This document shows, in pieces, positions 8,201 through 18,956 of a stretch of 64,000 nt of DNA (positions are counted from its first letter, which is position 1; every line of letters starts with the position of its first letter). The notes under the pieces were generated by a model that did no database searches, was not told the DNA's origin, and saw only the letters and a program-made list of their open reading frames with translations. The translations under genes and the position numbers were made by a program. This stretch comes from a virus: IMG/VR virus record IMGVR_UViG_3300002334_000124, positions 1 through 64,000 of that record. The stretch is one strand, 5' to 3'.

Positions 8201-8757
8201 ATTACTGGGATACTCAAGCATCGGATTTTGGGGTTTTGTCGCTCGGAGCTGACAATTGGGAGAGGGTCCACGACTATCAGGTACGGCTTCTACAAGAGAG
8301 ATTGCCCGACAAGCATGGTAGGGTGCTCGAAATTGGTGGCGGCGTGGGTCGACTGGGCATTCCTCTTGCTAAGGAAAATCCTGATCTCTTCTTCACGAAT
8401 TACGATACGTCTGAGGAGATGCTCAAGGAGTTCACTAAACGCAGTAAGGATGTTGAGAACATCGTGGGCTGTGACACTTTGACGACCGGGCTAAGGTTTG
8501 ATCTGGTTTTTTGTGTCCTAGTGATTCAGCACAACGACCTTGACAGTGTCAACAAGTTGATGTCTTTGATCGTTCTGGCATCCAGACCGTATGCACGGAT
8601 CCTTGTGCAGTTTGTCCGAGGCGACAAGTACACAGCTCATGGTCCGCGCTCATTCGATTATTCGATGGAGCAGATTGAGACCTTTTTGCCAGGGGCCAAG
8701 TTCTTCAAGGATGAGTCAGGTTATGCAGATTCTTGGTGGTGGGCAGAAATTCAATAG
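8197..8757 (+). CDS. class I SAM-dependent methyltransferase
   Basis: VLEIGGGVGR, YDTSEEML, FDLVFC..VIQH. Confidence 0.85.
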   Translation: MNYWDTQASDFGVLSLGADNWERVHDYQVRLLQERLPDKHGRVLEIGGGVGRLGIPLAKENPDLFFTNYDTSEEMLKEFTKRSKDVENIVGCDTLTTGLRFDLVFCVLVIQHNDLDSVNKLMSLIVLASRPYARILVQFVRGDKYTAHGPRSFDYSMEQIETFLPGAKFFKDESGYADSWWWAEIQ

Positions 8758-8764
8758 GTTTGAC

Positions 8765-8793
8765 TTGCATTGTTGTTAGACGTGGTGTAGTGT
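8765..8793 (+). promoter_or_regulatory. sigma70-type promoter for the RNA array (TTGCAT-N17-TAGTGT)
   Basis: 17-nt spacing, directly upstream of the non-coding region. Confidence 0.55.
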
Positions 8794-8796
8794 TCA

Positions 8797-9122
8797 TCTC
8801 GTAGCTCGGAGCGCGACTTTCGGTCAGGGTGGTCGCTGCATACGAGCCGCAGAGGACTGGGTGTGGAAATTAGCAGCCCACCCAGTTCTCAGTTCTCAAG
8901 GAAGGAAAAGCTACAAGAGGTGGTTATACTGCCGAAGAAGCATGTAGCAGTCAAGTCGAGAGGAGGCTCCCGCAATGTATGTGAAAGATTTTACAGAACA
9001 GAATCGGTTGAAGTCGACGACCAGTGTGGTCGATCCTCGGCATTCCCAGCGACCGGGTCGCGGGATCTGCGGTGGCACCACAGTCTGGGGCTGGCAAGCG
9101 TAACACCTTCGGGTGGCCTCTA
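8797..9122 (+). ncRNA. candidate large structured ncRNA leading the tRNA array
   Basis: no credible ORF; multiple helices, e.g. GAGGACTGGGTG/CACCCAGTTCTC, GCCGA/TCGGC, AGAGGT/GCCTCT, UUCG tetraloop. Confidence 0.55.
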
Positions 9123-9126
9123 TCTT

Positions 9127-9197
9127 AGGGGTGCTGATTGGTCAGACTGAGGTCTCCAAAACCTCAAGGCGGGGTTCGATCCCCCGTACCCCTGCCA
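9127..9197 (+). tRNA. tRNA-Trp(CCA), no 8-9 linker
   Basis: cloverleaf, loop CTCCAAA, TTCGA, 3' CCA. Confidence 0.85.
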
Positions 9198-9202
9198 AAT
9201 AT

Positions 9203-9278
9203 GCCGGTCACGCAGGTGTGGACTTGCACTTCTCTTGTAAAGAAGACTGACGGGGTTCGACTCCCCGGTCCGGCTCCA
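9203..9278 (+). tRNA. tRNA-Thr(TGT)
   Basis: CTTCT-CTTGTAA-AGAAG, TTCGA, CCA. Confidence 0.88.
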
Positions 9279-9291
9279 AGTAAGTAAGTAT

Positions 9292-9366
9292 GCGACTATA
9301 GTGTAGTTGGTAACATCTCTGCCTTCCAAGCAGATGTCGTCGGTTCGAGTCCGTCTAGTCGCTCCA
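9292..9366 (+). tRNA. tRNA-Gly(TCC)
   Basis: TCTGC-CTTCCAA-GCAGA, U73, CCA. Confidence 0.92.
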
Positions 9367-9375
9367 ACTGAATAT

Positions 9376-9447
9376 TGCTCCCTAGCATAACGGTAGTGCT
9401 ACTGGTTCTGATCCAGTCAAGTCCGAGTTCGACTCTCGGGGGAGCAT
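9376..9447 (+). tRNA. tRNA-Gln(CTG)
   Basis: ACTGG-TTCTGAT-CCAGT. Confidence 0.88.
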
Positions 9448-9453
9448 CGAAAG

Positions 9454-9495
9454 GTCTACTAGCTGGTAGACAATTGAACATTGAGAACTGAATAG
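9454..9495 (+). promoter_or_regulatory. boxB-like hairpin + rrn-type boxA antitermination element
   Basis: GTCTACT/GGTAGAC hairpin followed by CATTGAGAACTGAATAG. Confidence 0.5.
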
Positions 9496-9570
9496 ATCTG
9501 CCATAATTAGTCAGTAGATCCCTACTTGCGCCCTGTATGGGTCTCAAGTGGTACTCTACTGACTAAATAA

Positions 9571-9641
9571 GGTCCTGTGGTGTAACGGTAACACGCCAGC
9601 TTGTCAAGCTGTAGTCGGGGGTTCAACTCCCCTCAGGACCG
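9571..9641 (+). tRNA. tRNA-Asp(GTC)
   Basis: loop TTGTCAA, acceptor GGTCCTG/CAGGACC. Confidence 0.9.
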
Positions 9642-9644
9642 CTA

Positions 9645-9750
9645 ACGGGAAGTACTGGGTTCGATTCCCAGCACGCGAGCCTCATAGTCTGCAGACTTTG
9701 GGGTGGTATCTATAGGTGCCTGCTGCGAGGTGTAATGGCTGCACGCCCGT
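9645..9750 (+). ncRNA. circularly permuted tRNA-like RNA (T-arm, closed acceptor, D-arm)
   Basis: ACGGG/CCCGT closing stem; T-arm CTGGG-TTCGATT-CCCAG precedes D-arm GTGT-AATGGCT-GCAC. Confidence 0.65.
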
Positions 9751-9755
9751 GTTCT

Positions 9756-9828
9756 GCCCTGACCTGTGGATTCAGGCACCGAGATTACGAATCTTGGCTG
9801 CGGGGTTCAATTCCCCGTCGGGGCACCA
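9756..9828 (+). tRNA. tRNA-Arg(ACG), no 8-9 linker
   Basis: CCGAGA-TTACGAA-TCTTGG, CCA. Confidence 0.85.
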
Positions 9829-9835
9829 TACTACT

Positions 9836-9909
9836 GGGGCAGCATGTACCAAGGCTGGCGAGTCTCTCTTGCAAAGAGACTGTGAAGGGTTCGATTCCCT
9901 TCTGCTCCA
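9836..9909 (+). tRNA. tRNA-Ala(TGC)
   Basis: TCTCT-CTTGCAA-AGAGA, G3:U70. Confidence 0.85.
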
Positions 9910-9933
9910 CAACTTCTGTGTTACTATTCGGAT

Positions 9934-10320
9934 GTGATTTTCAGTCCGTATGACAAACATGGTTACACGCAGGGATCAGTGCAGGCAATCCTTGATCGGA
10001 AGCACGAAATGATGAGGGGTGGGCGCTCGAACAACATGAGCTACAAGATGGCTTACTGTGAGTGGCGAGACGGGTCGTTCTGCTACTGGTGCAATCGTGA
10101 ATTAGACATGTTGGATAAGAAGTCATTGATCCGCCCTACTCTCGACCATTTCCTCCCTGCCTGCCATGGCGGTCATAAGGTAGTCGAAAATCTTGTGCTC
10201 GCTTGCTACTACTGTAATCTCTACAGGGGTTCGACGCCTGCTTCGGCGACCTGCCTCTACTTGAAACATCGACAGGTGATCATGTGGATCATCCGAAGAA
10301 TGCGAAGACAGTTCAGATAA
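9934..10320 (+). CDS. HNH endonuclease
   Basis: RDGSFCYWC...TLDHFLP..HGG....NLVLACYYCN. Confidence 0.85.
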   Translation: MIFSPYDKHGYTQGSVQAILDRKHEMMRGGRSNNMSYKMAYCEWRDGSFCYWCNRELDMLDKKSLIRPTLDHFLPACHGGHKVVENLVLACYYCNLYRGSTPASATCLYLKHRQVIMWIIRRMRRQFR

Positions 10321-10321
10321 A

Positions 10322-10434
10322 TGTCCTTGCGCCAGGCAAGGTGAGCGTCCTGAGGTTCATGGCCTACAGGAAACTAAACGAGAGCACCGCATCGAGCCAC
10401 CCTTCGGGGCATGGGGACAAGGGACTCACCTGGC
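10322..10434 (+). ncRNA. candidate structured/pseudoknotted RNA after the HNH gene
   Basis: TGTCCTT/GGGGACA, GGTGAG/CTCACC, CCTG/CAGG, UUCG hairpin. Confidence 0.45.
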
Positions 10435-10439
10435 AGTAA

Positions 10440-10511
10440 GCCCCCATGGTCTAATGGCGAAGACGTCAGATTCTCAGTCTGAAGATCCGGGTTCAACTCC
10501 CGGTGGGGGTA
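10440..10511 (+). tRNA. tRNA-Glu(CTC)
   Basis: TCAGA-TTCTCAG-TCTGA. Confidence 0.9.
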
Positions 10512-10632
10512 CGCATATTAGCTAACGCTGGGGTTCCGCCCTAGTGCCACGGGATAACTTAATTTGCTGGCCTCGGCCCGCTGTTATCCGCGGCGGCAGT
10601 TCGACTCTGTGTGTGGATGCCGATAGATAGAT

Positions 10633-11151
10633 ATGGCACGACCACTTTCCAGTAACGATGGACACATAGTCCGGTTGGCTCCTTCGTTGGTCCCGATCGG
10701 AGACGTAAAGGCTGCCCTCGGTGAAGAACCGACATGGGCCGACTATAAGACCTGGATTCTTACCGGTCCAGCTATCTGGTACGACAAGGACGTCGGCTAC
10801 GTCACGGTACCTTCGGGGTTCATGACAGACTTCGCTTCGATACCGTTCTTCTTCAGGTGGTGGCAAACAGGCGGAACTGGTCCTCAAAGGATCGCTTCCT
10901 ACTTCCATGACTACATGTATTCGGAGCAGCTTTTCTCCAAGAAGGATGCTGACCGGATATTTCGTGAGGTCATGCAGGCCGCTAGACCTAAGGGCGGCAG
11001 GATACGTCATTTCCGTTCGATGTTGCGCCGCAATGTTATGTGGTTGGCGCTGAGAGTCGGAGGTATCTTTGCTTGGCGTTCTAACGGCAAGAAGCTGGCT
11101 AGTCTAGGTACTGGTTGGCGAGTAGCTTCGGAGTGTGGCGCAGCTTGGTAG
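10633..11151 (+). CDS. DUF1353-domain protein
   Basis: VTVPSGFMTDFASIP...ASYFHDYMY.....KDADRIFREVM; leaderless after GCCGATAG. Confidence 0.85.
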   Translation: MARPLSSNDGHIVRLAPSLVPIGDVKAALGEEPTWADYKTWILTGPAIWYDKDVGYVTVPSGFMTDFASIPFFFRWWQTGGTGPQRIASYFHDYMYSEQLFSKKDADRIFREVMQAARPKGGRIRHFRSMLRRNVMWLALRVGGIFAWRSNGKKLASLGTGWRVASECGAAW

Positions 11152-11205
11152 CGCACTTGATTTGGGATCAAGGGGCCGAGAGTTCGAATCTCTCCACTCC
11201 GACCA
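11129..11205 (+). tRNA. tRNA-Pro(GGG)
   Basis: CTTGA-TTTGGGA-TCAAG region, canonical body; overlaps the 3' end of the DUF1353 gene. Confidence 0.9.
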
Positions 11206-11217
11206 TTTAAGACCTAC

Positions 11218-11403
11218 GGTTATTCAGAGGACCCACCATGAGTCTCCACCTAGGTGAGACAAGGAAATGTGGAAAAGGCTTTGAACGTTCCAGGACTATC
11301 TACATGAACGCATAAACTGTGGTGGTGCAGTGGGAACTCTCGTGAGGTCACCGCGGTGACAACTCCTTCTCGGCAGTGAGGCTTGAGGTAGCTGCTGAAC
11401 AAC
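11218..11403 (+). ncRNA. candidate multi-stem RNA between the two tRNA-Pro genes
   Basis: GTTATTCAG/CTGAACAAC closing helix, CACCAT/GTGGTG, GTCTC/GAGAC, GTCAC/GTGAC. Confidence 0.45.
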
Positions 11404-11480
11404 TGGATGAGGACCATGAGGAAGGTCACCTGGTTTGGAGCCAGGATATCGTGTGGGTTCGAATCCCACCATCCAGACCA
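11403..11480 (+). tRNA. tRNA-Pro(TGG)
   Basis: CCTGG-TTTGGAG-CCAGG, CCA. Confidence 0.85.
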
Positions 11481-11496
11481 AACACAAAGGAGAAAT

Positions 11497-11646
11497 ATGT
11501 TAGGTCGGCTAATCAAGACCATCACAAAGACTGCGACGAAAACAATAACGGAGCTTCCAACTACCGTGATCGGAGTCGTTGAAGGAACTATCGAAGGAGT
11601 CGAAGAGGGTTTGAAGACTCTCGGCGACAAGATCGAAGGTAAGTAG
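11497..11646 (+). CDS. small hypothetical protein (49 aa, amphipathic)
   Basis: AAGGAG RBS. Confidence 0.6.
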   Translation: MLGRLIKTITKTATKTITELPTTVIGVVEGTIEGVEEGLKTLGDKIEGK

Positions 11647-11831
11647 AGTCTCCCGCCAGGGGGAGGGTTTGAACCAAATCCTGGCAGCATGCAAAACTCA
11701 CGTCGGAGTAACTGCCCGACATCATGTGAGACTCTTCCCATTCTTTGCCGATTAGTAACCGTCGAATGAATGGGCTATACGCACCCGTGCCTCGCTGGGG
11801 TCCTTTGGCTCCTGAGGTTGCGGGTGCACTT

Positions 11832-11905
11832 TGTAACCGGGCCCTCTGGGCGGGGGCGCGTGACTGTTAATCACGATGCGCTGGGTTCGAATCCCAGGGT
11901 TACAG
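11832..11905 (+). tRNA. tRNA-Asn(GTT)
   Basis: CGTGA-CTGTTAA-TCACG; acceptor TGTAACC/GGTTACA. Confidence 0.85.
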
Positions 11906-11961
11906 CTTTGGTAGTCGGTGGACTTGGACAACAGTATGTCATTCTGTCGATTACCAATCAT

Positions 11962-12038
11962 GGGGCGAAAGGCAAAGTCGGTGCGCCGCCAGGATGTGGC
12001 CCTGGTGCAAGCGGGTTCAACCCCCGCTCGTCCCTCCA
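11962..12038 (+). tRNA. tRNA-His(GTG)
   Basis: CCAGG-ATGTGGC-CCTGG, CCA. Confidence 0.82.
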
Positions 12039-12042
12039 ATTT

Positions 12043-12118
12043 GCCCCGGTGCTGTGCTGGTTCGGCAATCAGGTTTTCAACCTGGTGAACGCGGGTTCGA
12101 TTCCCGTCCGGGGTTCCA
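12043..12118 (+). tRNA. tRNA-Glu(TTC)
   Basis: ATCAGG-TTTTCAA-CCTGGT, CCA. Confidence 0.85.
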
Positions 12119-12206
12119 AACGAATAGCTGAGACTATGCGAATAGGCCTAGCTTGGATAGGCATTCCTTACCAAAGGTGCTATATTCACAGCTGTTGTAA
12201 ATAACG

Positions 12207-12338
12207 GTGTTCTGGTAAATCTAGCGCAGTCTGGAATATGGCTGTCTCTCTTCCCTTCGGGAGAGCTTATATCATAGGGCCGGGGTGGTTACCCGTGTGC
12301 CCAACGTTTGAGGCTGTATGCGTTTCACCAACGAACAC
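12207..12338 (+). ncRNA. candidate structured RNA
   Basis: GTGTTC/GAACAC closing helix, TCCC-TTCG-GGA hairpin; extended -10 TGCTATATT upstream. Confidence 0.4.
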
Positions 12339-12348
12339 GAAGGGACAT

Positions 12349-12425
12349 GATCGTATAGCTCAGATGGCTAGAGCGCTTCCTTGACGTGGAAGAGGCCGCA
12401 GGTTCAAGTCCTGCTATGATCACCA
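12349..12425 (+). tRNA. tRNA-Val(GAC)
   Basis: CTTCC-TTGACGT-GGAAG, CCA. Confidence 0.92.
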
Positions 12426-12430
12426 AATAT

Positions 12431-12507
12431 GGGCGTGTAGTTTAGTTGGCTAAAATACCTCTTTTACAAGGAGAAGATCGTGGGTTCGAGTCCCACTTCG
12501 CCCACCA
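12431..12507 (+). tRNA. tRNA-Val(TAC)
   Basis: loop TTTACAA, CCA. Confidence 0.85.
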
Positions 12508-12519
12508 ATTTAAGTTCGA

Positions 12520-12593
12520 TGCGCGGTAGTCTAACGGTACGACGGGGGACTCATAATCCTCAGATCCGGGTTCAATTCCCGGCTGCGCCACCA
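12520..12593 (+). tRNA. tRNA-Met(CAT), initiator-like
   Basis: loop CTCATAA, 1:72 mismatch, G-rich anticodon stem. Confidence 0.85.
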
Positions 12594-12639
12594 TCTAGTA
12601 GCGGTGTTTTCCTAGTGACACGCACCGCTACTAGAACTT

Positions 12640-12712
12640 TGTGCCATCGTCCAATTGGCTAGGACGCTTCATTCATACCGAAGAAATTCGGGTTCAATTC
12701 CCGGTGGCACGA
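12640..12712 (+). tRNA. tRNA-Met/Ile2(CAT)
   Basis: loop TTCATAC, TTCAA T-loop. Confidence 0.78.
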
Positions 12713-12773
12713 CAACAAATCTGGGGCTGGTCACAGCATCGTCCACGTCAATGTGGCTCGGCCAGCTCCTCTT

Positions 12774-12849
12774 GTGCGTATAGTGTTAGCGGCAAGCACA
12801 TGACCTTGCCAAGGTCAAAGGATGGGTTCAAATCCCATTACGCGCTCCA
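12774..12849 (+). tRNA. tRNA-Gly(GCC)
   Basis: TGACC-TTGCCAA-GGTCA, U73, CCA. Confidence 0.92.
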
Positions 12850-12850
12850 C

Positions 12851-12933
12851 GGGTCGACTGGGCATTGGAGAGCCCACCTGGCTGTAAACCAGACGTTTCG
12901 ACTGTGGCGGTTCAACTCCGTCTCGACCCACCA
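12851..12933 (+). tRNA. tRNA-Tyr(GTA)
   Basis: CTGG-CTGTAAA-CCAG, variable arm, CCA. Confidence 0.88.
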
Positions 12934-13006
12934 GAAGTCAATCAGGGAGACGCGGTTCGTTGCTCCGCTCCTTGCAACGAGAGGCCCTGGTTGACTTCGT
13001 TCACGA

Positions 13007-13081
13007 TCCTCTATAGTGTAATGGCCAGCACCCGAGTTTTTGGCGCTCGTAGTTTGGGTTCGAATCCCAATGGAGGTACCA
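13007..13081 (+). tRNA. tRNA-Gln(TTG)
   Basis: CGAGT-TTTTGGC-GCTCG, CCA. Confidence 0.85.
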
Positions 13082-13243
13082 ATGGCACCACAAGATAGAA
13101 TTCTCATCTGCAAAGAATGTCTGCCCATGTTCGATCTTCGCCCTATGGAGCGTGTCGATCTGGGCATATGTGTCGAATGCGACTTGAAAGAAGTCGGCTA
13201 CATGTACGAATCGGCCCTCGTCAAGAAAAGGGGAACCGAGTGA
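13082..13243 (+). CDS. small Zn-finger-like protein (CxxC...CxxC)
   Basis: GGAGG RBS lies in the 3' end of the tRNA; CKEC/CVEC. Confidence 0.55.
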   Translation: MAPQDRILICKECLPMFDLRPMERVDLGICVECDLKEVGYMYESALVKKRGTE

Positions 13244-13344
13244 TAGTTCTACCTAACGCCATTATCGGGATCATCATTGGAATAGTGGCTGCCTTTTCTC
13301 TCTCTAGGATTATCCGATCTCGTTCATCTGATAGTGAAGACTAG
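13240..13344 (+). CDS. small membrane protein
   Basis: GTGA overlap; single hydrophobic segment. Confidence 0.45.
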   Translation: MIVLPNAIIGIIIGIVAAFSLSRIIRSRSSDSED

Positions 13345-13420
13345 CCTGCGTAGCCTAACTGGTAAAGGCGATGGATTTAAGATCCATTATTTGTGGGTTC
13401 GATCCCCACCGTGGGCTCCA
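13344..13420 (+). tRNA. tRNA-Leu(TAA), short variable loop
   Basis: ATGGA-TTTAAGA-TCCAT, CCA. Confidence 0.88.
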
Positions 13421-13437
13421 ATCAACAAAAGGAAATC

Positions 13438-13719
13438 ATGAAAACAGTAGATCAATTTAAGTCACTAATACTGACGAATCACCCGGACTGTCCTTACACC
13501 AGAGTACGCAATCATGTGTTTTGCGACCCGAAGGGTGAGAGGATTCTGCGACAGTATCTTTTGGACCTTAATGACGAGGGTGAGTATCCAGACTTGGAGT
13601 TCTCCAACGCAGATGACGAGCTGTACGTTGTCACTCGGCATGGTGGCGAGATTCATTTCTTCGATGTTGTGGCTGGCGTTGAAGTAGATCGCAATTCAAG
13701 ACAGAAGAATCAAGATTAG
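13438..13719 (+). CDS. hypothetical protein
   Basis: AAGGA RBS. Confidence 0.6.
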   Translation: MKTVDQFKSLILTNHPDCPYTRVRNHVFCDPKGERILRQYLLDLNDEGEYPDLEFSNADDELYVVTRHGGEIHFFDVVAGVEVDRNSRQKNQD

Positions 13720-13795
13720 GCCTCCGTATCCCAACGGTAGAGGAAACTGGCTTAGACCCAGTTCAGTGTGAGTTCGACTCTCACCGGGGGCTCCA
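13720..13795 (+). tRNA. tRNA-Leu(TAG), short variable loop
   Basis: ACTGG-CTTAGAC-CCAGT, CCA. Confidence 0.88.
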
Positions 13796-13799
13796 AAAT

Positions 13800-13885
13800 G
13801 GTAGGTTGACAGAGCCAGGTAATGTCCCTGGTTGCTAACCAGAGCGAGCCGAAAGGTTGCGGGGGTTCGAATCCCTCACCTACCG
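13800..13885 (+). tRNA. tRNA-Ser(GCT)
   Basis: CTGG-TTGCTAA-CCAG, long variable arm. Confidence 0.88.
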
Positions 13886-13952
13886 CGGATGGTGCTGCGA
13901 AACCCGCACCTCAGGCTGTTCGACAGGGCCGATGTAAATTGACTGTCGACAA

Positions 13953-14037
13953 GGTGGGTGGACTGGCGACGGGCCAGCCCTGTTTTGAACGCAGGTACTG
14001 TGAAAGCAGACGAGTTCGATTCTTGCACCCACCGCCA
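13953..14037 (+). tRNA. tRNA-Ser(TGA)
   Basis: CCTGT-TTTGAAC-GCAGG, variable arm, CCA. Confidence 0.82.
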
Positions 14038-14039
14038 AT

Positions 14040-14206
14040 CTAGGTTGTCCACGTCCTAGCAGCTGCGCCTAACGCGGGATTAAACCGTTAGGCGCCAGGT
14101 ACCAAAATCGTGGAAGAGCGTTGGTTCCCCAGGATGATTGACATGGGAACATCTGGCCCGGTATTGCGTGGAGTCCTCCCTAGCCGGGGAATAAATGAGG
14201 ACCTAG
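14040..14206 (+). ncRNA. candidate multi-stem pseudoknotted RNA
   Basis: CTAGGT/ACCTAG ends; GCGCCTAACG/CGTTAGGCGC; GTTCCC/GGGAAC; GTCCTC/GAGGAC. Confidence 0.55.
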
Positions 14207-14217
14207 ATCATCCACTT

Positions 14218-14303
14218 GCGTCTTGCACGTCGTAGTGCTATTAGTCTGAGGGCCATGGCTACCAAAGATGAAAAGCAGGGTTAGAGTCCCTGAGGGCGCT
14301 CCA
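14218..14303 (+). ncRNA. aberrant tRNA-like element (Gly-like acceptor, 10-nt anticodon loop)
   Basis: GCGTCTT/AGGGCGC-T-CCA; GCAC/GTGC; T-arm CAGGG-TTAGAGT-CCCTG. Confidence 0.5.
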
Positions 14304-14304
14304 T

Positions 14305-14380
14305 GCTGACGAACCGAATTGGCTAGGAACCGGATTGCAACTCCGGTATTATGGGGGTTCGAGTCCCTCCGTCAGCTCCA
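14305..14380 (+). tRNA. tRNA-Cys(GCA)
   Basis: CCGGA-TTGCAAC-TCCGG, U73, CCA. Confidence 0.88.
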
Positions 14381-14381
14381 T

Positions 14382-14459
14382 GGGTGTGTAGCAAAAGTTG
14401 GTTTTTGCAGCGGCCTTTTAAGCCGACAAACGCGGGTTCGATTCCTGTCACGCCCACCA
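14382..14459 (+). tRNA. tRNA-Lys(TTT)
   Basis: CGGC-CTTTTAA-GCCG, CCA. Confidence 0.88.
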
Positions 14460-14460
14460 T

Positions 14461-14532
14461 GGGTCACTATGTTAAATGGAAAACGGCAAGACTCTTAATC
14501 TTGAATTCGGGGTTCGATCCCCCGGTGACCTA
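14461..14532 (+). tRNA. tRNA-Lys(CTT)
   Basis: CAAGA-CTCTTAA-TCTTG. Confidence 0.85.
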
Positions 14533-14545
14533 CGAAATACAACTA

Positions 14546-14933
14546 GGGGCTGAATAGGCTTTCGACGTTGGTGAATAGATTGTTGACCGCAATCGGAGTT
14601 GCTCAGACTCTTGAAACAGGGCACCAAAATACACGGCGAACCAACATTCACCGTTGCTACCAGCGAGGACATCTGGTCTGCTTTCGAGCAGACTGAGCTT
14701 GTCTCTGTCTAGTAGCAGAGGGCTCAGCTGGCCCTTAGAACCCAACAGCTTGACTTCTAGCAAAGACTAGGTGGAGCACTGGACATACCATTGCAAGACT
14801 GTCAGGAGAGACTGACTGGTGGACGGCATAGACGGGTAACCGACTAGCCCCATAGTGGCCACTCACAGTGGCATGATTGTATCGGTCATCATGATGCATG
14901 CAACGGACGGGGGTTCGACTCCCCCCAGCTCCA
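14546..14933 (+). ncRNA. ssrA: tmRNA; tag ORF 14635-14712 (A)GEPTFTVATSEDIWSAFEQTELVSV*
   Basis: 5' GGGGCTGAATAGG..TTCGAC, 3' GACGGGGGTTCGACTCCCCCCAGCTCCA, G3:U70, PK1 GAGT/ACTC then AAAATA resume context. Confidence 0.93.
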
Positions 14934-14943
14934 CAATTTATTT

Positions 14944-15029
14944 ACTCCCGTGGCGGAATGGTAGACGCGCTAGGTTGAGGGCCTAGTGACCGCAAGGTCG
15001 TGTGGGTTCGACTCTCACCGGGAGTACCA
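14944..15029 (+). tRNA. tRNA-Leu(GAG), long variable arm
   Basis: CTAGG-TTGAGGG-CCTAG, CCA. Confidence 0.92.
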
Positions 15030-15032
15030 CGT

Positions 15033-15109
15033 GGGCGTGTAGCATAACGGGTAAATGCACCCAGCTTATATCTGGGAGACAATGGGTTCAAGCCCCATTT
15101 CGCCTACCA
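15033..15109 (+). tRNA. tRNA-Ile(TAT)
   Basis: CCCAG-CTTATAT-CTGGG, CCA. Confidence 0.85.
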
Positions 15110-15110
15110 A

Positions 15111-15184
15111 CGGCATAGACGGGCTGGTTGCCCTGGTGATTCTGATAAGATTACTGCGCTCGGTTCGATTCCTAGTATGCCGAC
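15111..15184 (+). tRNA. tRNA-Ile(GAT), non-canonical
   Basis: GTGATT-CTGATAA-GATTAC; CGGCATA/TATGCCG. Confidence 0.75.
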
Positions 15185-15189
15185 AACAT

Positions 15190-15265
15190 GGGTCTTTGGT
15201 GTAGTTGGATGTCACATGAGTTTGAAAAGCTTAAGGCCGGGGTTCGAGTCCCCGAGGACCCACCA
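15190..15265 (+). tRNA. tRNA-Phe(GAA)
   Basis: TGAGT-TTGAAAA-GCTTA, CCA. Confidence 0.88.
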
Positions 15266-15280
15266 ATCGAAAGGGAAGAC

Positions 15281-16384
15281 ATGACAGAAGATATTGATAT
15301 CGGCAAGTTGCTGGTTGAGGCCAACGAATGTGAGGATGATTTCCGTAGATGTTTTTCCCTCGACACTGACTACGCCTTTTCTCTGATTTCCCAGAACCAG
15401 ACGTATTTCTGGGAGTACGGTCTGAAACATCGCATCAAGTCTTCGTTCAAGGGTGTCCCTAGTTTCAATCTCGATTCCTTCATGAAGCTTCACGATCTGG
15501 AACTAACTTGTTCCTACATGTTGAAGACCGCGTCGGACTATCTAGTTCTTGCAAAAGATCGAACATGGTGTGCTAACGTCGATGTTCGTGGTGATGAGAT
15601 ACAGGTTACTCTTGATGCTGTAACAGCAGAGCGTGCTGTCGACCTTATGGTGGCCTGCGATTTCAGTTCCTATATTTCCCCCGTTAAAGACAATCACACC
15701 TCCATGCGGTTCTGGATGATGGGGCAACACGGCATGGAGCTTCACTCTAGAGATCTAGACTTTCCCATTTTCGAGGACATCGTCAAAAGTTACCCGACTG
15801 GAGTACGCAATGCCCTCAATGAGTTGGTCAACACTCCTTTCGGAGAGTCTGGCAACATCATTCTCTTTCACGGTCCTCCAGGCACAGGCAAGACTACGGC
15901 TATTCGCGCTCTTGCTAGACACTGGAGTAAAAACATGGTCTTCAATGTGATCATCGAACCTGATGTCGTCTTCGGTTCCTATTCCAACATCTACCAAATG
16001 AAGAATGGTGACTCTGATGACGAGGACAAGAAACTGATGTTCGTAATTGAGGACAGCGACGAACTAATCAGCGAGGACAGCAAGGCGCGTACTGGTCAAG
16101 CTTTAGCGAAATTGCTCAACATGACTGATGGCTTGATTGGACAGGGAGTGAGTTTCAATGTTATCATCACCACCAATGAACCGATCGACAAGCTACACCC
16201 TGCGCTTATCCGTCCAGGTCGTTGTTTGGCTGATATCCATTTCCCTCCTCTCACAAGAGAAGAGGCTGAGGAGCGATTCCCGGATAAGGAATTCAAAACC
16301 AAGGAAGTAACCTTGGCCGAAGCCTTTGCTCCACCACCAATTCGTTCAGAGAAGAAGGACCACCGTACTGGAACCTACCTCTAG
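15281..16384 (+). CDS. AAA+ ATPase (BCS1-like/DUF5925-associated type)
   Basis: GPPGTGKT, VIEDSDE, LLNMTDGL, TTN...LHPALIRPGR. Confidence 0.88.
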   Translation: MTEDIDIGKLLVEANECEDDFRRCFSLDTDYAFSLISQNQTYFWEYGLKHRIKSSFKGVPSFNLDSFMKLHDLELTCSYMLKTASDYLVLAKDRTWCANVDVRGDEIQVTLDAVTAERAVDLMVACDFSSYISPVKDNHTSMRFWMMGQHGMELHSRDLDFPIFEDIVKSYPTGVRNALNELVNTPFGESGNIILFHGPPGTGKTTAIRALARHWSKNMVFNVIIEPDVVFGSYSNIYQMKNGDSDDEDKKLMFVIEDSDELISEDSKARTGQALAKLLNMTDGLIGQGVSFNVIITTNEPIDKLHPALIRPGRCLADIHFPPLTREEAEERFPDKEFKTKEVTLAEAFAPPPIRSEKKDHRTGTYL

Positions 16385-16389
16385 GACAG

Positions 16390-16461
16390 GCCTCCGCTAG
16401 CGGATCTAGACTCGACCTTCCGAAGGTTGATGAAGGAGTTCAATTCTCCTCGGGGGCTCCA
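16390..16461 (+). tRNA. tRNA-Arg(CCG), no 8-9 linker
   Basis: TCGACC-TTCCGAA-GGTTGA, CCA. Confidence 0.83.
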
Positions 16462-16467
16462 AGATTT

Positions 16468-16541
16468 GCCCTCGCCAGTGGATTCTGGCCGCGAGATTCC
16501 TAATTTTGCTGGTTCGGGTTCGATTCCCGACGAGGGTACCA
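16468..16541 (+). tRNA. tRNA-Arg(CCT), no 8-9 linker
   Basis: GCGAGA-TTCCTAA-TTTTGC, CCA. Confidence 0.83.
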
Positions 16542-16542
16542 G

Positions 16543-16615
16543 GCCCTGCGCACTGGATGTGCAGTCGATGCTTCTAACTTCGACGTGTCAGGTTCGATTC
16601 CTGGGTGGGGCACCA
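16543..16615 (+). tRNA. tRNA-Arg(TCT), no 8-9 linker
   Basis: GTCGATG-CTTCTAA-CTTCGAC, CCA. Confidence 0.8.
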
Positions 16616-16663
16616 CAAGGCAGATCTATTCAGTATGCTCACTCACAGAAAAGGGAGGGAACC

Positions 16664-17173
16664 ATGATGACTACCGGAGTTCTGGTCCTCAACGCCACAT
16701 TTGAACCGATCAACGTCATTCACCTTCATCGCGCTGTATGTCTCGTCGTACAGGAAAAGGCTGACGTGATTGAGTCTGTGGACGGTAAGACTTTCCGTTC
16801 GGCTAACACCGAGATTCCTTGCCCTTCTGTTGTGAAGCTTCGTTACTTTGTGAAGATTCCGTGGAAGCGAAGGCGTCCTGCAGTCACGAATCGTAACGTT
16901 CTTGGTCGTGACAATGATACGTGTGGCTACTGCGGTGGTGAGGCGTCTACCATTGACCACATTCACCCTCGCGCCCATGGTGGTACGAACGACTGGATGA
17001 ACGTGATTGCTGCTTGTTCGCCCTGCAATAGCACGAAGAGCGACCTAACCCTTGAACAGCTTGGTTGGGAACTACTCTTCAAGCCGACTATCCCAGCTGA
17101 TAAGACATGGCTGGTGGTGGGTTGGGCTGAGCGCGAACAACAGGCTAAGTATTTGCAGCACGCGACCATATAG
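16664..17173 (+). CDS. HNH endonuclease (McrA-like)
   Basis: VLVLNATFEP...RDNDTCGYCG..ASTIDHIHPRAHGG...W.NVIAACSPCNSTK. Confidence 0.9.
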   Translation: MMTTGVLVLNATFEPINVIHLHRAVCLVVQEKADVIESVDGKTFRSANTEIPCPSVVKLRYFVKIPWKRRRPAVTNRNVLGRDNDTCGYCGGEASTIDHIHPRAHGGTNDWMNVIAACSPCNSTKSDLTLEQLGWELLFKPTIPADKTWLVVGWAEREQQAKYLQHATI

Positions 17174-17179
17174 AGGCCT

Positions 17180-17254
17180 GCTCCTGTACCCCAATTGGTA
17201 GAGGGACCGCATTCAAAACGCGGCAACGTGAGGGTTCGACTCCCTCCAGGGGCA
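17180..17254 (+). tRNA. tRNA-Leu(CAA), short variable loop
   Basis: loop TTCAAAA. Confidence 0.82.
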
Positions 17255-17259
17255 CTGCT

Positions 17260-17332
17260 GCCTGTGTAACTCAGTTGGTAGAGTACTTCCATGGTAAGGA
17301 AGAAGTCCGGGGTTCGACTCCCCGCCCAGGCC
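17260..17332 (+). tRNA. tRNA-Thr(GGT)
   Basis: CTTCC-ATGGTAA-GGAAG. Confidence 0.9.
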
Positions 17333-17357
17333 CTCAGAAAAACAAATGACAATTAGT

Positions 17358-17384
17358 TGAATAAAACGTATATCCATCCGATAC
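17358..17384 (+). promoter_or_regulatory. sigma-28-type late promoter TGAA-N15-TCCGATAC
   Basis: start of the packaging module. Confidence 0.6.
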
Positions 17385-17405
17385 TGTTCTGGATGGAGGT
17401 ACGTT

Positions 17406-18956
17406 GTGGCTGTTCCAACTGATGAGATTACGGTAATAGGTCCTGCTGGTGGCGTGTTTGTCGTGCTGACGACAGACGAGCAGGAGTATTTCGAGAATCT
17501 TTGCGATCGATACACTAGAGACTATGCGTTCCAGAACGTTTCAGATCTTGCTGACTTAGAGCGTGTGATTCAGAACGAAGTTCTTTCACAGCGGTTTAAC
17601 CGTTTTCTGGGTACGGGCTTTGATTACTGGGGTGATCCGGTCTCGACTAAAGAGTTTACGGATGCAGTCAAAGGCCTGTCTCTCGAATTGCGCGGACTCA
17701 AGAAGGCTCTTGGAATTGATCGCATATCTCGCAAGCATGATTCGTCAGAATCCGTGTCGGATTATGTAACCAAGCTATTAGAGCGTGCTCGTGAATTTTC
17801 CGTAATGCGAAACGAGCAGACCACTAAAGTGTTAACGGTCTTCATGGAGTTACGCGCATTGGTTACCTTGCATGATAACTGCTTGAGTGGAGATACAGAA
17901 GTTTTGACTAGCAATGGTGTGGTTCCTATTGCTACGTTGGCCGACCTCAAGGCTACCGTTCTGAGTAAATCTGGATCCGGTAGGTGGGTTGAAGCCGAAT
18001 TCAAAAGCTTTGGAATGCAGCCTCTTATGGAAATTGTCTTAAAGAGAAATGGTGCAACGAAATTAGTGCGAGCCACGCCTGGGCATCGTTGGTATGTTAA
18101 CGGTCGAATCGTACGCACTGATGAACTGGATCCGGGCATGCGTTTAGATTCTTGTTGGGGTTCGCGTAAATCTGTGAGACCTTCACCACAGGGCGTGCAG
18201 GCGGGGATCGTGTATGGGGATGGGAGTTTAGACAAAAGACAAAAGTCAGGTTCGTTTGTAGTTCTCTGTGGTCTCAAGAATGAAGAACTTCTGAAGTGGT
18301 TCCCCAACAATGAAGTCAAACAAACTAAGGTGGGATTGAAGATCTGTGATCTTCCGCGTTCGTTTAAGTCTCGACCCTCTCTTGATGAATCGAGATCGTA
18401 TCTGTATGGGTGGCTCGCTGGATATTTTGCAGCTGACGGAACTGTGGACCGTAATGGATCACCTTCACTGTCTTCGACATCCTTTGAGTCATTGAAGATT
18501 GCCAGAAATGTTTGCTATCTGCTTTCGATCCCAACTTTGGGTATCTCGTCTGTTGATCGGATTAGCAACCTCACTGGCGAATCTTCAATACTTCACAGGC
18601 TTTCATTCCCAAAAGGTGCACTCGATCGAGAGTTCTTCTTGATTGAAGAACACAGGAATCGGTGGTCAGCCAGGACTCGGCTGGTCAAATCCTATGTTCC
18701 CGATTATGAAGTCGTCACGGTGCTTCCAACTGGTGAGGTGGAAGAGGTTTTCTGTGCCGTTGTTCCTGAATTCCAGAACTTCACTTTGGCTGACAATCTG
18801 CTTTCTGGTAACTGCACGGAGGAAGAACGTCGTACCCAAGGGGCCGAGATAGACGACATCTTGCAATGGCTTCGTGATTACGCATTTCCAGAGTTTGACA
18901 CCATAGACGCTGAGTTCATTAACTCCAGTCAGCGTTATTGGGTCCAGGAAATGTAA
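17406..18956 (+). CDS. intein-containing helical protein upstream of terminase (possible small terminase subunit)
   Basis: GGAGG RBS; 205-aa extein; position in the packaging module. Confidence 0.65.
   Translation: MAVPTDEITVIGPAGGVFVVLTTDEQEYFENLCDRYTRDYAFQNVSDLADLERVIQNEVLSQRFNRFLGTGFDYWGDPVSTKEFTDAVKGLSLELRGLKKALGIDRISRKHDSSESVSDYVTKLLERAREFSVMRNEQTTKVLTVFMELRALVTLHDNCLSGDTEVLTSNGVVPIATLADLKATVLSKSGSGRWVEAEFKSFGMQPLMEIVLKRNGATKLVRATPGHRWYVNGRIVRTDELDPGMRLDSCWGSRKSVRPSPQGVQAGIVYGDGSLDKRQKSGSFVVLCGLKNEELLKWFPNNEVKQTKVGLKICDLPRSFKSRPSLDESRSYLYGWLAGYFAADGTVDRNGSPSLSSTSFESLKIARNVCYLLSIPTLGISSVDRISNLTGESSILHRLSFPKGALDREFFLIEEHRNRWSARTRLVKSYVPDYEVVTVLPTGEVEEVFCAVVPEFQNFTLADNLLSGNCTEEERRTQGAEIDDILQWLRDYAFPEFDTIDAEFINSSQRYWVQEM
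17880..18812 (+). mobile_element. intein with LAGLIDADG homing endonuclease (311 aa)
   Basis: N-term CLSGDTEVLT, block B ATPGHRW, WLAGYFAADG, block F EVFCAVVP, C-term LSGN/C. Confidence 0.92.

Follow-up and report, generated by a model that had tools for sequence, protein, structure and literature searches.

The first 64 kb of the 84.8-kb IMG/VR virus record IMGVR_UViG_3300002334_000124 (CheckV completeness 57%), here called the window, carry an array of transfer RNA (tRNA) genes on the + strand (9127-17333). This array is probably a mosaic tRNA operon in which independently folding non-tRNA RNA modules occupy tRNA-type slots and would be released by tRNA processing. It holds two comparatively supported RNAs (a double-pseudoknot RNA at 14113-14224 and a stem with a pseudoknot at 12934-12998), about five to seven strong hairpins of uncertain standing, tRNA debris, small genes and a probable cis-acting signal. 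In the usual annotation, a large phage tRNA array consists of tRNAs and empty gaps; here at least two of the gaps hold RNAs under selection for their fold. The most valuable item is the double-pseudoknot family, which is open to direct testing because two cultured phages, Arthrobacter phage Constance and Microcystis phage Mwe-JY26, carry it.

A profile search with the AAA ATPase encoded in the array recovered two JGI metagenome contigs, L013 and L014, in which the ATPase is 63% identical and the tRNAs from Gly(GCC) to Phe stand in the same order; IMG/VR searches with the ATPase and with the sigma factor found no close relative. A 106-nucleotide (nt) spacer of L014 proved homologous to the middle of the 267-nt Ser-Cys spacer of the window, and two pattern scans of IMG/VR yielded 38 loci (6 plus 32, with 6 of the 32 repeating the first scan). 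The covariance model R1, built from 24 copies and 111 positions long, matches the window at 14113-14224 (+ strand, core approximately 14119-14213) over positions 1-111 of 111 with 114 bits and an E value of 2e-26, a fit that is partly by construction because the window copy is among the 24 seed sequences. Independent copies score 78-124 bits against the same model. Searched against 62 viral and metagenome sources, R1 gave 34 matches, one per locus, at 78-119 bits. It also confirmed three of 79 pattern matches in contigs of bacterial and archaeal metagenome-assembled genomes, the other 76 having no R1 match and being attributed to chance, and it found the RNA in Constance and Mwe-JY26, which brings the total to 39 copies (34, 3 and 2, respectively). 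The 84.8-kb record has a single copy. No family of Rfam 15 matches the window element at E <= 5, and a search of 151 sampled actinobacterial genomes with R1 returned no match, a result that says little since only the top 20 candidates per genome were scored. In the literature that was searchable, no paper has the conserved strings of the family in a relevant context, the three text matches being unrelated primers; in GenBank the RNA is either unannotated or, in Constance, overlaid by a 36-codon hypothetical protein.

The window carries the short form of this RNA, built from four helices: Pa (GTTCCC/GGGAAC), Pb (GGATGAT/ATCATCC), Pc (CCCGGT/GCCGGG) and Pd (GTCCTC/GAGGAC). Their strands follow one another as Pa5'-Pb5'-Pa3'-Pc5'-Pd5'-Pc3'-Pd3'-Pb3', which amounts to two interlocked pseudoknots, and all 25 base pairs (bp) can form in the window copy. 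In an alignment of 25 distinct sequences, pairing holds in 98.4% of 612 cells, compared with 81.8% in shuffles, and 14 of the 25 pairs change on both sides; none of 500 shuffles reached the observed values, and controls with slid partners were 38-52% paired. Such two-sided changes affect 5/6 pairs of Pa, 7/7 of Pb, 2/6 of Pc and 0/6 of Pd. The counts for Pb and Pc lean towards the model because both helices belonged to the one that made the alignment; Pa did not. Pd is near-invariant, with one compensatory change supplied by Mwe-JY26. Covariation of this kind supports the assignment of 14113-14224 as a non-tRNA RNA with a conserved structure.

Across phages of different phyla, upwards of 40 positions of the family are invariant. 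Many of these are unpaired, which argues for a conserved partner or ligand. The unpaired invariant strings, CGYGG (twice), ACATCTGG, GRAATAA and CCTAG, are present in the window copy, where the first site reads CGTTGG. A presumed likeness of conserved strings to the sarcin-ricin loop and the anti-Shine-Dalgarno sequence was considered and dropped as a matter of 7-nt coincidences. Ten distinct copies have a type I hammerhead core, with variable stems II and III, inserted in the loop that separates Pc5' from the second CGUGG; the Rfam HH9 match of such cores, for example in L060, is weak (16.5 bits, E 0.15). The window copy has a 7-nt loop at this place, with no hammerhead core and no match to a hammerhead family at E <= 5. 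Literature on hammerheads together with phage tRNA arrays held no such scaffold among the matches listed, as judged by title and abstract, and supplementary alignments might bear on it.

A knotted fold with this many invariant positions could itself be catalytic: it might be a new ribozyme, self-cleaving or processing, whose task is to trim the trailers of neighbouring tRNAs. Such trimming has been proposed for the theta ribozymes, which lie beside phage tRNAs and provide a precedent. The knotted RNA often begins 0-31 nt past a tRNA 3' end, and the hammerheads in ten distinct copies link RNA cleavage to the scaffold; a scaffold that cut itself, however, would make the hammerhead redundant. Among the ribozyme families of Rfam, none matches the window copy at E <= 5, and its helix order, by inspection, lacks the P3/L3 hairpin of ribozymes like that of hepatitis delta virus (HDV). 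Moreover, the spacing from the tRNA upstream varies (from -1 to 834 nt across the family, with 81 nt from tRNA-Ser in the window), whereas theta ribozymes lie within 5 nt. We therefore regard catalysis by the scaffold as very improbable.

The surroundings of the family are varied. Of 37 copies, 23 have a tRNA within 2 kb, and in five array copies (L014, L052, L053, L061 and the window) the next tRNA or tRNA-like gene follows 3-5 nt downstream. In the window this distance is 4 nt and the neighbour is a degenerate tRNA-like cloverleaf (14218-14303); two small hairpins stand upstream of the element. Loci with at least seven tRNAs account for none of the 10 distinct hammerhead forms versus 12 of the 20 distinct short forms (loci L032-L063, L149 and L150), a contrast to be taken as a lead only, given different locus lengths, related sequences and uneven sampling. 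The Constance copy (MH834605.1 42737-42896; L149 1398-1557) is a hammerhead form that overlaps coding sequence 68 (CDS 68; 36 codons, hypothetical protein), probably a mis-call, and Mwe-JY26 carries the short form within a 16-tRNA array (record positions 99011-99121). In L042 (2585-2600) and L044, the knotted RNA starts directly after sequence ending GGTTCGACTCC...GCAGCTCCACC, which looks like the 3' end of a transfer-messenger RNA (tmRNA) or tRNA-Ala uncalled by ARAGORN.

The residence of 12 of 20 distinct short forms in tRNA arrays also bears on the idea of a decoy, in which the knotted RNA, perhaps with a minihelix and tRNA-like pieces, would mimic tRNA so as to absorb defence nucleases or occupy tRNA enzymes. 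Phage tRNAs can counter anticodon nucleases. The two pseudoknot stacks of 6+7 and 6+6 bp (approximately 12-13 bp each), probably coaxial, would be about as long as the two arms of a tRNA, and the fold roughly tRNA-sized. The G3:U70 minihelix at 12723, described below, resembles an alanine acceptor arm, and L013 and L014 have a canonical minihelix with T arm and ACCA. Nevertheless, the knotted RNA has no anticodon-like loop and no sequence likeness to tRNA (no RF00005 match at E <= 5), small phages that have no tRNAs, among them Constance (43.7 kb), carry it, and no defence or counter-defence gene consistently adjoins it. A decoy role is thus unlikely in our judgement.

An RNA that is conserved, knotted, associated with hammerheads and present across host phyla could well represent a new class of functional RNA. 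We tentatively put forward the more specific possibility that the double-pseudoknot RNA is a new class of phage RNA, directed by phages of Actinobacteria, Cyanobacteria and other hosts against one universally conserved host target. The tRNA-processing enzymes of the host would cut it out of large tRNA arrays, and a built-in hammerhead would do so elsewhere. The target may be a factor that handles tRNAs or ribosomes, a defence nuclease, or a small-molecule signal that the RNA sponges. If this proposal is right, the array is an expression platform for small RNAs that would also deliver the lineage-specific 12934 pseudoknot RNA and an alanine-type minihelix.

An earlier sequence-only reading of this DNA had described a dozen or more structured RNAs and listed 11 spacer positions closed by a helix between their own ends. 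It took tRNA punctuation to release a set of small RNAs, with the decoy role weighed above as a possible function. Each non-coding spacer and each of these 11 domains was folded against 200 dinucleotide shuffles. At five positions (9507, 11908, 12594, 12723 and 12934), the two ends pair in a helix of 10-15 bp whose length was reached by no more than one of 200 shuffles, with z from -3.05 to -8.06. The segment 11645-11831 folds strongly (z -4.03, 0/200) as three separate hairpin domains and not as a single closed unit. At the other five, the closing helix is 5 bp at 9645 (matched by 28/200 shuffles), 6 bp at 10322 (8/200) and 6 bp at 12207 (24/200); none was found at 11218, and the whole spacer at 14040 has none, with 7 bp over 14040-14206 (13/200). 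Among whole spacers, 7 of 15 reach z <= -3.2 with at most one of 200 shuffles equal (starts 9449, 11647, 11907, 12594, 12714, 12934 and 17334), and that at 8758-9126 is borderline (z -2.4). The closed helix thus held at five positions, gave way to three hairpins at 11645 and was at chance level in the remaining five, and the dozen or more structured RNAs come down to approximately 7-9 candidates. The minihelices, pseudoknots and tRNA mimics of that reading are real objects (the 12934 and 14113 elements, the slot hairpins and the 12723 stem), and the covariation that it had asked for in relatives is present family-wide at 14113-14224 and pairwise with L014 at 12934-12998. They do not form a uniform set of small RNAs, given that some spacers are tRNA debris (9655-9686 and 14264-14303) and one is a probable cis-acting signal.

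The second comparatively supported element (12934-12998, + strand) is a 14-bp stem with a hairpin inside it; the loop of this hairpin and the 5' internal strand are complementary, as in an H-type pseudoknot (z -4.1, 0/200). It starts at the first base past tRNA-Tyr and ends 8 nt before tRNA-Gln, and a homologue occupies the matching Tyr-Gln position of L014 (510-576, in a 74-nt spacer). The strings GGGAGACGCGGT and CCGCTCC are identical in the window and L014 and complementary to each other. Pairing is kept although nine of 13 compared pairs in the closing helix of 13-14 bp, and three of seven in the inner helix, have changed on both sides. Because pairing survived these base changes while the flanking proteins are 63-70% identical, we argue that the fold is under selection and that 12934-12998 is supported as a structured RNA with compensatory changes; the comparison comprises two sequences only. 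Nothing in Rfam matches the element. Seven IMG/VR loci with its core pattern (approximately three of them distinct) were set aside as simple hairpins without tRNAs, their number being close to the estimated chance level.

The remaining strong folds, all on the + strand, share the placement of these modules between tRNAs. The hairpin at 9507-9566 (60 nt, 12-bp closing helix; z -8.06, 0/200) leaves a 4-nt tail before tRNA-Asp. That at 11908-11957 (50 nt, 15 bp; z -3.4 to -3.9, 0/200) lies between tRNA-Asn and tRNA-His, and that at 12594-12635 (42 nt, 14 bp; z -5.6 to -6.2, 0/200) between two tRNA-Met genes, each again with a 4-nt tail. Three successive stem-loop domains at 11645-11827 (z -4.03, 0/200) follow 3' of a small open reading frame (ORF; 11498-11646), the last stem-loop ending 4 nt 5' of tRNA-Asn. 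Of the six strong stems, five leave precisely 4 nt in front of the following tRNA and one leaves 8 nt; four start 0-1 nt past the preceding tRNA, with heads of 0-9 nt overall. The stems therefore take the place of a tRNA in the array, behind a short AU-rich leader. The 12934 element begins at the first base after its tRNA-Tyr, and the 14113 element 81 nt after tRNA-Ser. The strong hairpins are not mutual copies; every direct repeat in this part of the window belongs to a tRNA T arm or acceptor end. None of the hairpins at 9507, 11908, 12594, 12723 and 12934 is among the terminator-like sites (GC-rich stem plus T run), and their interpretation as intrinsic terminators was rejected.

The hairpin at 12723-12769 (47 nt; z -3.05 to -3.4) is a minihelix whose outer 7 bp, GGGGCTG/CAGCTCC with a G3:U70 pair, are identical, as read from the sequence, to the acceptor stem of the window tmRNA (14546-14552/14926-14932). 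It is followed by TCTT and encodes no CCA. Directly 3' of tRNA-Cys, L013 (441-490) and L014 (1268-1317) have a 50-nt minihelix with a 7-bp G3:U70 acceptor stem, an intact T arm and an encoded ACCA, without D or anticodon arm; it resembles either an alanine minihelix that could be charged or an acceptor module of tmRNA type. AlaRS charges G3:U70 minihelices. The window hairpin resembles alanine minihelices and the tmRNA acceptor arm in its 7-bp G3:U70 stem, and differs from alanine minihelices by its discriminator U and by the lack of an encoded CCA and of a T arm.

What the analysis shows are the folds with their statistics, the covariation and the spread of the family; for the mosaic operon we infer the following course. 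Transcription of the array would give one long precursor or a few. The cut that RNase P makes at a tRNA 5' end would define the 3' end of the module before it, typically with a 4-nt AU-rich tail, and 3'-end maturation of the upstream tRNA would define the 5' end of that module, leaving compact RNAs of 40-100 nt that survive. The double-pseudoknot RNA would most likely act in trans on a highly conserved partner in the tRNA or translation machinery of the host, and the plain long hairpins, four to five in number, may be mere processing or insulating units.

Several observations weigh against this reading. In 14 of the 37 copies, the knotted RNA has no tRNA within 2 kb and hence does not depend on tRNA punctuation, and the protein neighbours of the tRNA-less copies (PHROGs) include no recurring family. 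The Ser(TGA)-Cys spacer is 267 nt in the window versus 5 nt in both L013 and L014, and the knotted RNA stands one slot earlier in L014 (in a 106-nt spacer between two Ser genes that measures 5 nt in L013) and is absent from L013; presence and absence of this kind fit dispensable or mobile modules. Five of the 11 listed positions, and 7 of 15 whole spacers, fold no better than shuffles. The test itself is unreliable in both directions, because the family-supported element at 14113-14224 has a nested-fold z of +1.0; it misses the best-supported element yet passes several hairpins that are unverifiable. For the hairpins at 9507, 11908, 12594 and 12723 there is no relative to compare, and a sensitive blastn search of the other window spacers against the comparison loci returned just the 14113 element, a weak match of 12934 to L014 and T-arm likeness. 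Other arrays of the comparison set have weaker stems, with an outer helix of at least 8 bp in 10 of 41 spacers of 35-130 nt, and all four of the 41 with an outer helix of 10-15 bp come from the window. Promoter-like sites in the array (6 versus 7.2 expected from shuffles) and terminator-like sites (9 versus 8.1) are at shuffle level.

Some spacers contain pieces of tRNA. The segment 14218-14303 (+ strand) has a cloverleaf as its minimum-free-energy (MFE) fold, with an aberrant anticodon arm and an encoded UCCA (z -0.5); its part 14264-14303 aligns in register with tRNA 3' halves, and the whole has no RF00005 match at E <= 5 and no ARAGORN call. The spacer at 9645-9750 (+ strand) opens with a tRNA 3' half, namely a T arm and 3' acceptor strand at 9655-9686, as seen from the in-register alignment. 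It folds at shuffle level (z -0.9 to -1.2), with no RF00005 match at E <= 5 and ARAGORN silent, and could be either a tRNA remnant or a permuted tRNA-like RNA. The YrlA model (RF02553) has no match over 9645-9750 and hits only the true tRNAs at 17229-17284 and 12377-12476 (20-25 bits against a gathering score of 69).

Remnants such as these suggest another origin for the gaps: most spacers might be functionless, made of decayed tRNAs, recombination scars of homing endonucleases and inert stems or processing stalks, with the knotted RNA as the only gene among them. The two tRNA 3' halves and the degenerate cloverleaf agree with this view, as do the two HNH genes in the array, the LAGLIDADG-domain gene just past it, the differences in spacer presence among the window, L013 and L014, and the 7 of 15 spacers that fold at shuffle level. 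Yet the 12934 structure was kept through nine double changes in its closing helix and three in its inner helix, decay would not be expected to produce perfect 12-15-bp stems with z as low as -8, and the hairpin at 12723 is an exact copy of the tmRNA acceptor stem. We consider a largely inert set of spacers possible, if rather doubtful, and prefer the mosaic operon with folded modules in tRNA-type slots.

One spacer probably has a different function from the modules of this operon. A 7-bp hairpin (9454-9471) is followed by TTGAGAACTGAATAG at 9481-9495, its sole exact copy in the window. The motif is 14/15 identical to one that a Paenarthrobacter genome carries at contig ends in four copies, of which one lies 173 nt upstream of the 5' end of the 16S gene, and a version with two mismatches occurs seven times in a Streptomyces genome. 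Because 9481-9495 is near-identical to an actinobacterial 16S-leader motif, the segment 9454-9495 (+ strand) is more likely a cis-acting signal of ribosomal RNA operon (rrn) type than a small RNA. The motif is a putative boxA; a literature search for boxA-type strings gave nothing useful. It is like the boxA-type antitermination signals of rrn leaders in being one base from the Paenarthrobacter motif, and unlike them in lying inside a tRNA array and not in a ribosomal RNA operon. A perfect 16-nt inverted repeat, of a length reached by 2 of 100 shuffles, joins this first long spacer (9487-9502) to the leader of the second HNH gene (16619-16634; gene start 16664), and the two RNAs could pair.

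The tRNA inventory itself is large. Between 9127 and 17333, ARAGORN called 33 tRNAs and a tmRNA, all on the + strand, and Rfam gave 25 tRNAs at gathering score, including one at 14305-14377 that ARAGORN missed, for 34 tool-called tRNAs in total. Two Arg-like sequences (16467-16541 and 16542-16617) were uncalled by both programs; their MFE folds are cloverleaves with a T arm and NCCA, and the T arms are in register with those of the other tRNAs of the array. Counted with these two, as the sequence-only reading had done, there are 36 tRNAs covering all 20 amino acids, and its inventory of 36 tRNAs and a tmRNA was essentially right. The Rfam comparison that it had proposed confirmed the tmRNA (14546-14934, + strand; ARAGORN and RF00023) at 83.7 bits.

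Several of these genes are atypical. The stretch 16390-16617 reads as three successive Arg tRNAs (CCG, CCU and UCU), the first with just 23 bits in Rfam and the two uncalled ones seemingly without two bases between acceptor and D stems and with long anticodon stems. The tRNA at 12431-12507 is labelled Cys(ACA) by ARAGORN, and its 7-nt loop TTTACAA is read instead as carrying the anticodon UAC (Val); a Cys(GCA) tRNA is present at 14305-14377. The tmRNA tag given by ARAGORN, GEPTFTVATSEDIWSAFEQTELVSV, is long and without the usual Ala-Ala end. The tmRNA and tRNA-Ala end in ACAA and not ACCA; most tRNAs of the array encode CCA.

Protein genes, all on the + strand, interrupt or adjoin the array. 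Several longer gaps, absent from the positions listed by the sequence-only reading, code for proteins: an HNH endonuclease (9934-10320, PF01844), a DUF1353 protein (10633-11151, PF07087), the AAA ATPase with a DUF5925 domain that served as query for relatives (15281-16384, Pfam) and a second HNH endonuclease (16664-17173, Pfam). The 3' end of the DUF1353 frame extends 23 nt into tRNA-Pro (11129-11205). A 53-residue protein (13082-13243) is 70% identical to its L014 counterpart (E 2e-28). A 25-codon ORF at 11237-11314, with a good Shine-Dalgarno-like AGAGGA, lies in a 197-nt spacer that folds at chance level and may be a micro-protein gene. Just past the array, a 516-residue ORF (17406-18956) has a LAGLIDADG domain mid-protein (residues 335-387) and may be an intein or a fused homing endonuclease.

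The phage, which is uncultured, probably has an actinobacterial host, an assignment for which relatives of the ATPase and its DUF5925 domain, together with the rRNA-leader-like motif, are the evidence. The ATPase is approximately 30% identical to proteins of Myrna-like Mycobacterium phages, and relatives of its DUF5925 domain are mainly actinomycete proteins. The GC content of the window is approximately 51%. Megablast of the whole array against GenBank phages found no close DNA relative, and in a blastn search of 11206-12348 against the same phages the sole match was the tRNA-Glu of phage Myrna.

Other structured RNAs of phages provide a measure for these elements. GOLLD and ROOL are 500-800 nt long and are represented in Rfam. 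Both are described as phage-associated structured RNAs often found near tRNA genes (PMC12286853). Nothing in the array matches their models, and the window elements measure 40-110 nt. With type I hammerheads, ten distinct copies of the double-pseudoknot family share the core CUGANGA, GAAA and a predicted cut after GUC, GUA or GUU, from which the window copy departs by its 7-nt loop without a core. The passages on type I hammerheads of phages and prophages used here for comparison (PMC3088659) do not describe a surrounding double-pseudoknot scaffold.

Theta ribozymes, minimal HDV-like ribozymes, are described within 5 nt of phage tRNAs in gut phages of Bacteroidota and Bacillota, with a proposed role in tRNA 3' trailer processing (PMC10879173). 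They are like the window RNAs in being pseudoknotted small RNAs beside phage tRNA genes. HDV-like ribozymes are marked by a nested P1/P2 pseudoknot, a P3-L3 hairpin, P1.1 and a catalytic C in J4/2. HDV-family models found no match at E <= 5 in 8600-17500, and by inspection neither the 14113 nor the 12934 element has a hairpin between two 5' strands and a P1-like 3' strand. The window RNAs are unlike theta ribozymes in lacking a P3/L3 hairpin and in standing at variable distances from tRNAs. Phage T4, with its 8 tRNAs, offers the other precedent. Its tRNA region is described as yielding two small RNAs of unknown role, RNAC and RNAD (PMC3014915), and by this description the likeness lies in the production of non-tRNA small RNAs from a phage tRNA cluster. 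The array of the window differs from that pair in the number of candidates, up to 7-9, and in that one of them is a member of a family found across phyla.

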